From a virus: DNA of 64,000 bases. Below the pieces are notes generated by a model that had not been told where the DNA came from, did no database searches, and saw only the letters and a program-made list of their open reading frames with translations. Shown here one piece after another: positions 48,901-49,974 of the stretch (the stretch's first letter is position 1; every line of letters starts with the position of its first letter). The stretch is from positions 23,413 to 87,412 of IMG/VR virus record IMGVR_UViG_3300048446_000526. One strand, 5' to 3'. Both the position numbers and the translations under genes were made by a program.

Positions 48901-49974
48901 CTATCGAGTGAAAACTCCACCGTCTCTTGAAAGCATAAGTTTATCCCATGCAGACAGAGCATTAGGGGCTGTACTAGGCAGCACCTCGATGTCGTCATTA
49001 ATAAAATGCGTTGACCCATCAACAAATACCACACCGACACCGCCGGGATGCAGGCTCCTAGAAGTCGCTTCATTATTGGTGTTATCAAAGCAACTCATAC
49101 CTTGTTTATTCATGTCATAACTTTGTTTTAAGTTGTTGCAATTCACAATATTGTCTGCACCTGACGCTGTATTTGCATTAGGCCCAGCAGCGTCTAGGCT
49201 GACTCCATCATAAGTTAAACCGCCATGACCCCATAACGCACTGCCACCAGCACCAGCCATAGCCCAACAACCTCTAGAGTCACGCTCATCAATACCTGCA
49301 CGAACTTCTGCCAACAGACAAGTGTTGCTTGTACCATCACTGATATGTGCGAAGGTACTGCTAACTCCGTAACCCATAACACCTCTTAGCATAGGGTCTT
49401 GCCAGTTTTTGCCTCCGTTACCAAGAGCATTTAGTGGAGGATGCAAGGTAAGAGAAAACATACCTAGGCCTGCATTTGCAGCATAGTTGCCTCTAGCCCA
49501 GTTGTCACCCCACTGTGCTGAACGTGGAGTAGAAGTACCGTTGAATGGAACTCTATTGTATGGGTCACTAGCACAGAGCATCACGCTCAGTTCTGTAGAA
49601 CGCAATGCTTCATTGCTTGGTGCTGCTACAGTAAATCTGGAATCACTCTCATCATGGAGGGCTTTCACCGTAGTACCTTCCATATAATCCAACAAATCAA
49701 TTACCCAGTTTTTAGTTCTAGTATATGAACCAATACCGTCTGGTGGCAAGGTAGGATCGTTGGAACTAATTTTGTGACTAGCATATGGAAATCTACCATA
49801 AGCAGACTCATAGTTGTGACAGGCTAATCCTAGTTGTTTCATGTTGTTGCTACACGCCATACGACGAGCAGCCTCTCTTGCTTGCTGCACAGCAGGCAAT
49901 AGCATACCGACAAGAACGCCGATGATAGCGATAACAACAAGTAGTTCGATTAAAGTAAATGCTTTCTTATTCAT
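48901..49974 (-). CDS. DUF1559 (SBP_bac_10) prepilin-type N-methylation / H-X9-DG protein
   Basis: KKAFTLIELLVVIAIIGVLVGMLLPAVQQAREAARR..CSNNMKQLGLA.HNYES, ISDGTSNT and C-terminal SLHPGGVGVVFVDGS. Confidence 0.95.
   Translation of the reverse strand: MNKKAFTLIELLVVIAIIGVLVGMLLPAVQQAREAARRMACSNNMKQLGLACHNYESAYGRFPYASHKISSNDPTLPPDGIGSYTRTKNWVIDLLDYMEGTTVKALHDESDSRFTVAAPSNEALRSTELSVMLCASDPYNRVPFNGTSTPRSAQWGDNWARGNYAANAGLGMFSLTLHPPLNALGNGGKNWQDPMLRGVMGYGVSSTFAHISDGTSNTCLLAEVRAGIDERDSRGCWAMAGAGGSALWGHGGLTYDGVSLDAAGPNANTASGADNIVNCNNLKQSYDMNKQGMSCFDNTNNEATSRSLHPGGVGVVFVDGSTHFINDDIEVLPSTAPNALSAWDKLMLSRDGGVFTR

Follow-up and report, generated by a model that had tools for sequence, protein, structure and literature searches.

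Why does a tailed marine phage carry, among its replication genes, a gene for a prepilin-like protein of the DUF1559 family, where did it acquire that gene and what might the product do in an infected cell? The gene lies in IMG/VR virus record IMGVR_UViG_3300048446_000526 (87,412 bp, rated 58% complete by CheckV), of which we analyzed bases 23413-87412. This stretch of 64,000 nucleotides is called the window here, and coordinates refer to it unless another contig is named. We propose that 48901..49974 is a functional gene of the phage and encodes a type IV pilin-like envelope protein of the DUF1559 type (with a class III signal peptide), and that it is a captured gene, kept by selection, whose product would join the host pool of pilin-like subunits and may mask the cell surface. 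We hold this explanation, taken as a whole, with about even confidence. The features of the gene on which it depends are as follows.

48901..49974, minus strand: DUF1559/H-X9-DG prepilin-type gene, 357 amino acids (aa) (open reading frame, ORF; PF07596, PF07963, TIGR02532 and TIGR04294 matches; orthologues; structural model).
49960..49974, minus strand: codons of the predicted 5-residue leader MNKKA, with a putative prepilin peptidase cut after Ala5 (sequence; N_methyl and TIGR02532 matches).
49798..49959, minus strand: mature N-terminal alpha-1 helix, aa 6-59, with Phe+1, Glu+5, Gly+14 and Pro+22 (model and alignments).
49015..49050, minus strand: H-X9-DG motif, His309 to Asp319-Gly320 (TIGR04294; alignment of 124 sequences; predicted hairpin).
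49495..49794, minus strand: fast-diverging globular part, aa 61-160 (alleles of the window and its closest phage relatives, clade A below; nonsynonymous divergence by segment).

The ORF is open throughout and its product begins MNKKAFTLIELLVVIAIIG. PF07596 (DUF1559; Pfam name SBP_bac_10) matched residues 30-330 with an E-value of 5.1e-45 and 155 bits against a cut-off of 23.3, and the match covers profile positions 1-266 of 268 with a score above the gathering threshold. At the N-terminus, PF07963 (N_methyl) matched residues 2-26 (31.1 bits; cut-off 21.2) and the NCBIfam prepilin domain TIGR02532 was also found (28 bits; cut-off 16.3). Near the C-terminus, the NCBIfam H-X9-DG domain TIGR04294 matched residues 306-326 (26.8 bits; cut-off 19). 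Read directly, the N-terminus is MNKKA/FTLIELLVVIAIIGVLVGMLLP (the slash marks the predicted cleavage site), which gives a short charged leader, a small residue at -1, Phe+1, Glu+5 and a hydrophobic helix with Gly+14 and Pro+22. The spacing from H309 to D319-G320 is exactly nine residues. An earlier note on this DNA had described an intact type IV prepilin cleavage/N-methylation motif and an H-X9-DG motif, and both were confirmed by the profile matches and by direct reading.

These motifs are conserved in the family as a whole. F6, E10, G19 and P27 are invariant or nearly so in DUF1559 family alignments, H309 is invariant across 124 aligned sequences with D319 and G320 nearly invariant, and the window protein retains all invariant and nearly invariant columns of alignments of 28 and 124 sequences. 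The residue at -1 is Ala (KKA/F) and not the commoner Gly, and Ala is also found there in about a third of the aligned cellular family members. In type IVa pilins and pseudopilins, Phe1, Glu5, Gly14 and Pro22 matter for processing and filament assembly. The window protein resembles GspG (TIGR01710) and the type IVa pilins in its short basic leader, in these four residues and in its long N-terminal helix. It differs from them in a globular part of about 300 residues, roughly three times larger and without sequence similarity. The GspG equivalog TIGR01710 scored only 35.4 bits against a cut-off of 88.85 and aligned over residues 5-67 only; among the GspG, ComG and PilA equivalogs of NCBIfam, the N-terminal helix alone was matched, far under the cut-off.

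The AlphaFold model of the protein (predicted local distance difference test score, pLDDT, 91.7; predicted template modeling score, pTM, 0.89) has a 52-residue N-terminal helix (residues 8-59) followed by a mixed domain of about 300 residues, and places H-X9-DG in the last beta hairpin (312-326). When the model was compared with 48,161 chains using VIA-align, there were 22 matches with Z of at least 2 (full range 2.0-4.5), and all except one were to type IV pilins or pseudopilins, spanning residues 5-330. They included Thermus PilA4 (Z 4.5), EpsG (Z 3.8), PulG (Z 3.2), PilV and ComP; the likeness to EpsG, PilA4 and PulG is weak but consistent. Foldseek searches of the PDB and BFVD returned nothing significant, and there the N-terminal helix alone aligned, with an E-value of 0.67 or weaker. 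The model is thus coherent with, and weakly suggests, a pilin core with much enlarged loops.

The gene might be a non-functional hitch-hiker, host contamination or the product of a chimeric assembly. The only point in favor of this is its GC (guanine plus cytosine) content, 45% compared with 38% for the phage. At third codon positions its GC (GC3) is 35%, equal to that of the phage and within the 29-39% of its neighbors, so that the GC excess stems from amino-acid content. The silent sites of the gene are fully ameliorated, which indicates an old association between gene and phage. Contigs from independent runs bridge both junctions of the gene. Three further IMG/VR contigs do so too, which brings the IMG/VR contigs with these junctions to four, and the record is not chimeric at this place. 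A contig from run X2 covering 48941-50942 bridges the DUF1559, kinase and primase genes with one mismatch, and contigs from runs X3 and X5 bridge the nuclease and DUF1559 genes. Together with the low ratio of nonsynonymous to synonymous divergence (dN/dS) given below, these observations effectively refute a passenger or an artefact.

The carrier appears to be a marine tailed phage with a large genome (about 150-170 kb) and an apparently virulent lifestyle. The tape measure protein encoded in the window has 3,534 residues, and there are genes for tail fibre and baseplate-like proteins. Also encoded are a UvsX-like recombinase, a primase and a helicase, a split PolIII alpha subunit and a ribonucleotide reductase. 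No tyrosine or serine recombinase was found, including in a 171-kb relative rated 100% complete, which points to a probably virulent lifestyle. A stretch of 2.7 kb that includes the gene is present in seawater metagenomes of 15 studies and in a viral-fraction metagenome. The same stretch occurs in two oligo-dT RNA libraries of one marine study. The contigs of these two eukaryote-style RNA-Seq runs (X2 and X18) are near-identical and span window positions 43000-56000, the whole replication module, which could reflect DNA carry-over or active infection. All 30 bins of this 13-kb stretch are evenly covered, so we take these contigs to show presence and not transcription. A tblastn search of 50,697 GenBank phage records with the window protein gave no match.

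Three other IMG/VR contigs, L002, L003 and L004, carry the gene syntenically; the contigs of this set have lengths of 171 kb, 128 kb and 8 kb. The order primase, kinase, DUF1559, nuclease, PolIII alpha-N, exonuclease is kept, and the orthologues are 82-89% identical to the window protein. Pairwise dN/dS values are 0.07-0.16 at synonymous divergences (dS) of 0.8-1.7, with three distinct DNA sequences compared (L002 and L003 are identical over the DUF1559 gene). These values indicate that the gene is intact, not decaying, and has been maintained by purifying selection, with dS saturated between these phages.

Although constrained, the protein diverges faster than its neighbors. Between the window and L004 the DUF1559 protein is 82% identical and the neighboring proteins are 93-97% identical; dN is 0.13 for the DUF1559 gene and 0.012-0.040 for the neighbors, a difference of 3-10 fold. 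The excess is concentrated in one region, with dN of 0.24-0.32 in aa 61-160 compared with 0.03-0.12 elsewhere. Variable positions among the clade A alleles cluster at aa 81-160, and residues 1-60 and 301-320 hardly vary. In aa 61-160 the dN/dS ratio (omega) does not rise above about 0.3 wherever dS can be measured; over aa 101-160 dS is saturated. A sliding-window analysis of dN/dS gave no sign of positive selection, omega never exceeding 1 where dS was unsaturated. Alleles of the gene in the databases look mosaic.

The surroundings of the gene are a tightly packed replication operon, with the following features.

49971..50552, minus strand: deoxynucleoside monophosphate (dNMP) kinase gene, upstream neighbor (PF21448; phrog_139, E-value 1.3e-43).
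49971..49974, minus strand: ATGA start/stop overlap with the dNMP kinase gene (read from the sequence).
49983..49986, minus strand: GGAG, a Shine-Dalgarno-like motif 8 nt 5' of the ATG (read from the sequence).
47849..48892, minus strand: PD-(D/E)XK nuclease gene (Cas4/AddB-type), downstream neighbor after an 8-bp gap (PF12705, E-value 1.2e-19; phrog_69 exonuclease).
50549..53174, minus strand: genes for the Toprim primase and the replicative helicase, in the same operon (Toprim domains; overlapping ORFs; order kept in relatives).
50115..50143, minus strand: sigma-70-like TTGTCA-17-TATAAT inside the kinase gene, about 140 nt 5' of the DUF1559 start, a possible internal promoter (11/12 match).

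The DUF1559 ATG (49974-49972) overlaps the TGA of the dNMP kinase gene (49973-49971), and there is neither an intergenic region nor a regulatory region of its own. This overlap, and the placement between the dNMP kinase and a Cas4-like nuclease, are as the earlier note had described them. The last 54 nt before and across the DUF1559 start are invariant in the window, L002 and L004 (the final alignment columns). Across the three sequences compared, both hexamers of the sigma-70-like element are likewise unchanged in L002 and L004, although third positions close by vary. Promoter-like matches are common in the region (71 compared with 47 expected), which weakens the case for an internal promoter, and we consider that the element might, at most, add a promoter for the DUF1559 gene. 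Further 11/12 sigma-70-like matches lie in true intergenic gaps at 47825-47852, 45679-45707 and 43095-43122.

The note had also called the gene inserted between kinase and nuclease, and this was borne out by distant relatives in which the two genes are directly adjacent. We compared the proteins of the whole record with those of 77 other DUF1559-bearing IMG/VR loci, which together form one broad phage family with three clades of interest here.

Clade A: the window and L002-L004; backbone identity to the window 80-97%; order kinase, DUF1559, nuclease.
Clade B: L007, L009, L012-L014, L017 and L021; 52-82%; kinase next to nuclease, and DUF1559 flanked by the exonuclease and PolIII alpha-C genes.
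Clade C: L045, L059, L062, L063 and L075-L078; 25-62%; kinase and nuclease adjacent here too, DUF1559 between the UvsX-like gene and the helicase gene.

Within this one family DUF1559 thus occurs at three places in the replication module and at a fourth far away, while the backbone order is fixed; the gene has either moved or been inserted anew. The fourth is in the complete 171-kb clade A genome, which has a second DUF1559 gene (L043 7992-8978, 328 aa) about 55 kb from the first and 30% identical to it. In that record (IMGVR_UViG_3300024324_000009) the second gene is at about position 146 kb, and its stop overlaps a 167-aa ORF without a Pfam match. The part of the genome expected to hold the second copy is missing from the record of the window.

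Phylogenetic trees (FastTree, 254 sequences; IQ-TREE, 98 sequences) separated these genes. The clade B and C copies and the second copy at L043 form one starred clade that groups with many environmental proteins, some of them on Mb-size contigs. The window copy lies elsewhere, within a clade of Pirellulales/Lacipirellulaceae-type proteins that has a support of 100. Forcing the two phage groups together, with the constrained group defined after the tree was seen, cost 448 log-likelihood units and was rejected by the approximately unbiased (AU) test with a p-value of 2e-32. By the trees and this test, the window gene was captured later and independently, in phages that already possessed a DUF1559 gene, and the sequences indicate that this phage family has captured DUF1559 genes at least twice.

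The older type is by far the more abundant in environmental data. It has very many environmental relatives, in clusters of up to 294 members, and 53-55% identical relatives on contigs of 2-3 Mb. It too is intact and widely conserved, and it shares family and architecture with the window gene. Its globular part is only about 30% identical to that of the window protein, and it occupies the three other genomic positions. By contrast, the 25 mature N-terminal residues are identical in the window clade and the older copy while the codons differ throughout, which points to constraint at the protein level. Gene conversion between the two phage copies was considered as a cause of the identical N-termini and was rejected because silent sites differ throughout.

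All of the 80 best named hits of the window protein in the GTDB genome collection are from Planctomycetota, and five of these genomes have 33-91 matches each, compared with one to two copies per phage. The best hits fall within the Planctomycetota-Verrucomicrobiota-Chlamydiota (PVC) group, and in the phylogeny the gene nests, with starred support, among Pirellulales/Lacipirellulaceae-type proteins. The phage protein shares the three-part architecture, length and invariant residues of this cellular subfamily (for example Adhaeretor mobilis, P0007, and the GYF_2-fused P0003) and is nested inside it in both trees. Identity is 47-50% to proteins of named genomes. In the family of a Lacipirellulaceae metagenome-assembled genome (MAG), 36 of 120 genomes have a match at an E-value of 1e-62 or better, with identity of at most 49%. 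The closest non-phage relatives are those of cluster P0003 (433 aa, 11 members), 64% identical to the window protein. A member of this cluster lies at L188 1758-3059 on a 3,990-bp metagenome contig (WLWG01010546.1; 42-48% GC), beside a gene for an LVIVD-repeat protein, and this contig looks cellular. P0003 had no relatives in IMG/VR, and among 401 sampled Pirellulales genomes the search for a P0003-type protein gave a single 51% match, so that the likely donor lineage was not found there. On this sequence evidence the gene was captured from a Pirellulales-like planctomycete DUF1559 subfamily.

In the L188 protein the prepilin motif is preceded by a GYF_2 domain (about 60 residues) and a linker, so that the leader is about 95 residues long; most of the 11 cluster members match this protein in length. 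Either prepilin peptidase removes a folded cytoplasmic domain, or translation really begins at an internal GTG immediately ahead of the motif. The phage protein differs from this closest relative in having no GYF_2 extension. Two proteins in the comparison set (P0012 and P0146) carry the NCBI label 'Patescibacteria group bacterium', yet they cluster at 90% or more with a Thermoguttaceae protein and are probably from mis-binned MAG contigs. In one planctomycete genome (G452), four identical 92-aa ORFs with a 711-bp period form a tandem repeat at L184 11422-13833, a few kb from the DUF1559 homologue.

The earlier note had proposed that the host is a planctomycete. This stood at phylum level, on the 80 named hits and on the nesting in the trees, and it falls short of proof given the GC contents and the identity of 47-64%. 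None of the three outcomes that the note had named as refuting was seen, since the best hits lie within the PVC group, the contig is not chimeric and the gene is under purifying selection. We consider a planctomycete, probably of the Pirellulales, to be the probable host. The alternative is that the gene was transferred into phages of another low-GC marine lineage with prepilin-type proteins, such as another PVC group. The GC content of the phage (38%) is below that of every Planctomycetota cellular locus sampled (43-72%), and about 70 of the 79 other DUF1559-bearing IMG/VR loci have 30-41% GC. Moreover, the planctomycete link comes from homology, and the closest relatives of the older copy are on Mb-size contigs. 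On the other side, both independent captures fall among planctomycete proteins, as do all the named hits, the nearest cell-like contig has a GC content not far from that of the phage, and the amelioration of silent sites speaks for an old association. Also, a GC content well below that of the host is frequent in large lytic phages. We therefore regard a non-planctomycete host as unlikely. Neither the window nor the examined parts of its relatives contained tRNA genes, which leaves no host clue of that kind.

What might the protein do? Being encoded in the replication operon, it would be produced alongside the replication proteins, in the early or middle stage of infection. Its hydrophobic N-terminal helix would insert it in the cytoplasmic membrane, where a prepilin peptidase of the host may cut and N-methylate it. 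Cellular relatives are expressed and go with membranes: of 91 N_methyl plus SBP_bac_10 proteins in Tuwongella immobilis, 25 were detected by proteomics, mostly in detergent-soluble membrane fractions (PMC8567305). Peptidase_A24 was absent from the phage records examined, including the complete 171-kb relative, and has 3-5 matches in each of four Pirellulales genomes checked; since the phage has no prepilin peptidase, processing would fall to the host enzyme. Because Phe+1, Glu+5, Gly+14 and Pro+22 are kept, the protein is predicted to enter the host pool of pilin-like subunits as an assembly-competent subunit and not as an inert plug. The least certain step is the next one, in which it would take the place of host subunits, or dilute them, within a pseudopilus or surface fibre; the infected cell would then show a phage-specified surface. 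Such an altered surface could hinder the adsorption of further or competing phages, as with prophage FimU in Pseudomonas.

The prophage FimU (P-FimU) becomes part of type IV pili, which stay functional, and it protects against phages whose binding site is the pilus tip; PilA-like genes also occur in virulent phages, and the same paper points to early superinfection exclusion by T4 (Sztanko et al., Cell Rep 2026, PMC12952977). Like P-FimU and the PilA-like proteins of Pseudomonas and Xylella phages, the window protein is a phage-encoded homologue of a host prepilin-type subunit that would depend on host machinery and seems to vary between related phages, and some of the P-FimU/PilA-like cases are also in virulent phages. 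Fibre incorporation and protection were demonstrated for P-FimU; for the window protein, incorporation is proposed by analogy. Unlike P-FimU, the window protein has a probable host in another phylum, has no detectable sequence relationship to P-FimU beyond the N-terminal helix, and its cellular DUF1559 counterpart is not known as a type IV pilus part or a phage receptor. A receptor-masking role like that of phage FimU is plausible by this analogy. The faster divergence compared with the neighbors, the variable region on an otherwise conserved protein and the repeated capture are consistent with surface masking, and none of them proves it.

The main rival is an auxiliary role, in which the protein would supplement or replace a host DUF1559 protein and so keep up some work of the envelope, for example the capture or uptake of polymers or phosphate, while host expression declines. 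The cyanophage genes pstS and psbA are comparable auxiliary genes. In Pfam the family was classed with the solute-binding proteins, and in R. baltica, which has 74 copies, members of it respond to stress (PMC2754498). P. limnophila has 68 copies, of which two are essential (PMC10632474). The nearest named homologues (L182 and L183) adjoin genes for dockerin-like secreted proteins, a Peripla_BP_4 sugar-binding protein, a 3-keto-disaccharide hydrolase and FecR, and the overall purifying selection on the phage gene also fits an auxiliary role. By contrast, no phosphate-acquisition genes lie beside these homologues in the two genomes, where orthology is doubtful at 48-49% identity. The sole signal upstream of the phage gene is the sigma-70-like element within the kinase gene, no search aimed at Pho boxes having been made, and phosphate control is not supported for this copy. 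The phage gene is translationally coupled into a replication operon by the 4-nt overlap with the kinase gene, whereas the cellular genes stand alone beside secreted-protein genes, and it has a phage codon composition. At 47-64% identity to any cellular protein, it is far more diverged than classical auxiliary genes, and it diverges faster than neighboring phage genes in a surface region. Nor does a lipoprotein or secreted-enzyme partner gene accompany the phage copy. In two cellular loci (L185 8191-8640 and L186 6423-6875), the DUF1559 homologue is paired with a gene for a lipoprotein-like protein of about 150 aa without a Pfam match (lipobox LVVGCGS or VSAQGCNS); the phage has no such partner. 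On balance an auxiliary role seems rather unlikely to us. The earlier note had suggested both a pilus/secretion decoy and a change in substrate uptake, and we take the second to be as plausible a rival as the first.

A decoy of the more drastic kind would be a poison subunit: once inside the type IV pilus or the type II secretion-like machinery of the host, it would stop assembly or function, and fibres, motility, DNA uptake or secretion would be lost during infection. Disabling of type IV pili is common among phages, and this mode of action has been suggested for truncated PilA-like proteins of Pseudomonas phages (PMC12952977). The clade A proteins stop before a C-terminal tail that is present in most cellular relatives and have a common short insert near residue 255, and expression from the replication operon would give a non-physiological dosage. 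However, the same insert is found in the nearest cell-like relative, and a simple blocker would need only the N-terminal helix, whereas here the invariant residues are kept and the whole globular part is under purifying selection. Because the whole globular part is conserved we consider a poison subunit quite improbable, and the protein looks like a working subunit rather than an inert decoy.

Several points weigh against a captured subunit that masks the surface. The pilin fold matches are weak (Z of 4.5 or less), and Foldseek recovered the N-terminal helix only. No segment of the gene has dN/dS above 1, and the fast region may be the result of allele swapping and not of positive selection. 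The even coverage by the RNA-library contigs allows for DNA carry-over, and the host assignment, by homology only, has to contend with the low GC content of the phage. Cleavage, membrane insertion, fibre incorporation and the effect on adsorption are all predictions. To our knowledge, neither polymerization of DUF1559 proteins nor the use of such a fibre as a receptor by planctomycete phages has been established.

We found no paper on DUF1559 in phages when we searched the literature by DUF, by Pfam name and accession and by motif name, and none on planctomycete phages as such. Phage-encoded pilin homologues are already known (PMC12952977); a DUF1559-type one in marine planctomycete-associated phages is new and would extend phage replacement of host pilus subunits to a distant phylum and a different pilin-like family. 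The additions made here are a formal test against one common origin of the DUF1559 genes in a single phage family, the site of insertion as seen by comparison, the assembly determinants and common N-terminus, the variable region and the cell-like relative with 64% identity. The gene also hints at the host of these large marine phages, an abundant group for which our search found no cultured member and no literature, and its small natural set of alleles marks a variable, probably exposed region.

DUF1559 is the largest paralogous family in planctomycete genomes. Phages retain only genes that pay. DUF1559 genes were captured at least twice and kept through saturating divergence, which suggests that these proteins act at a point of the envelope that matters in infection. 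More tentatively, and with clearly more doubt than confidence, large lytic marine planctomycete phages might systematically re-equip the DUF1559 repertoire of their hosts with one ancient subunit and, in this lineage, a second one captured independently, both assembly-competent, suited by their identical N-terminal helix to the same host machinery, and built into a surface fibre during infection so as to re-specify the binding of competing phages or polymers. If this is true, the phage alleles would mark aa 61-160 as the exposed, ligand- or phage-contacting face of DUF1559 proteins and would, for the first time, open to experiment what is the largest family of functionally uncharacterized proteins in Planctomycetota.

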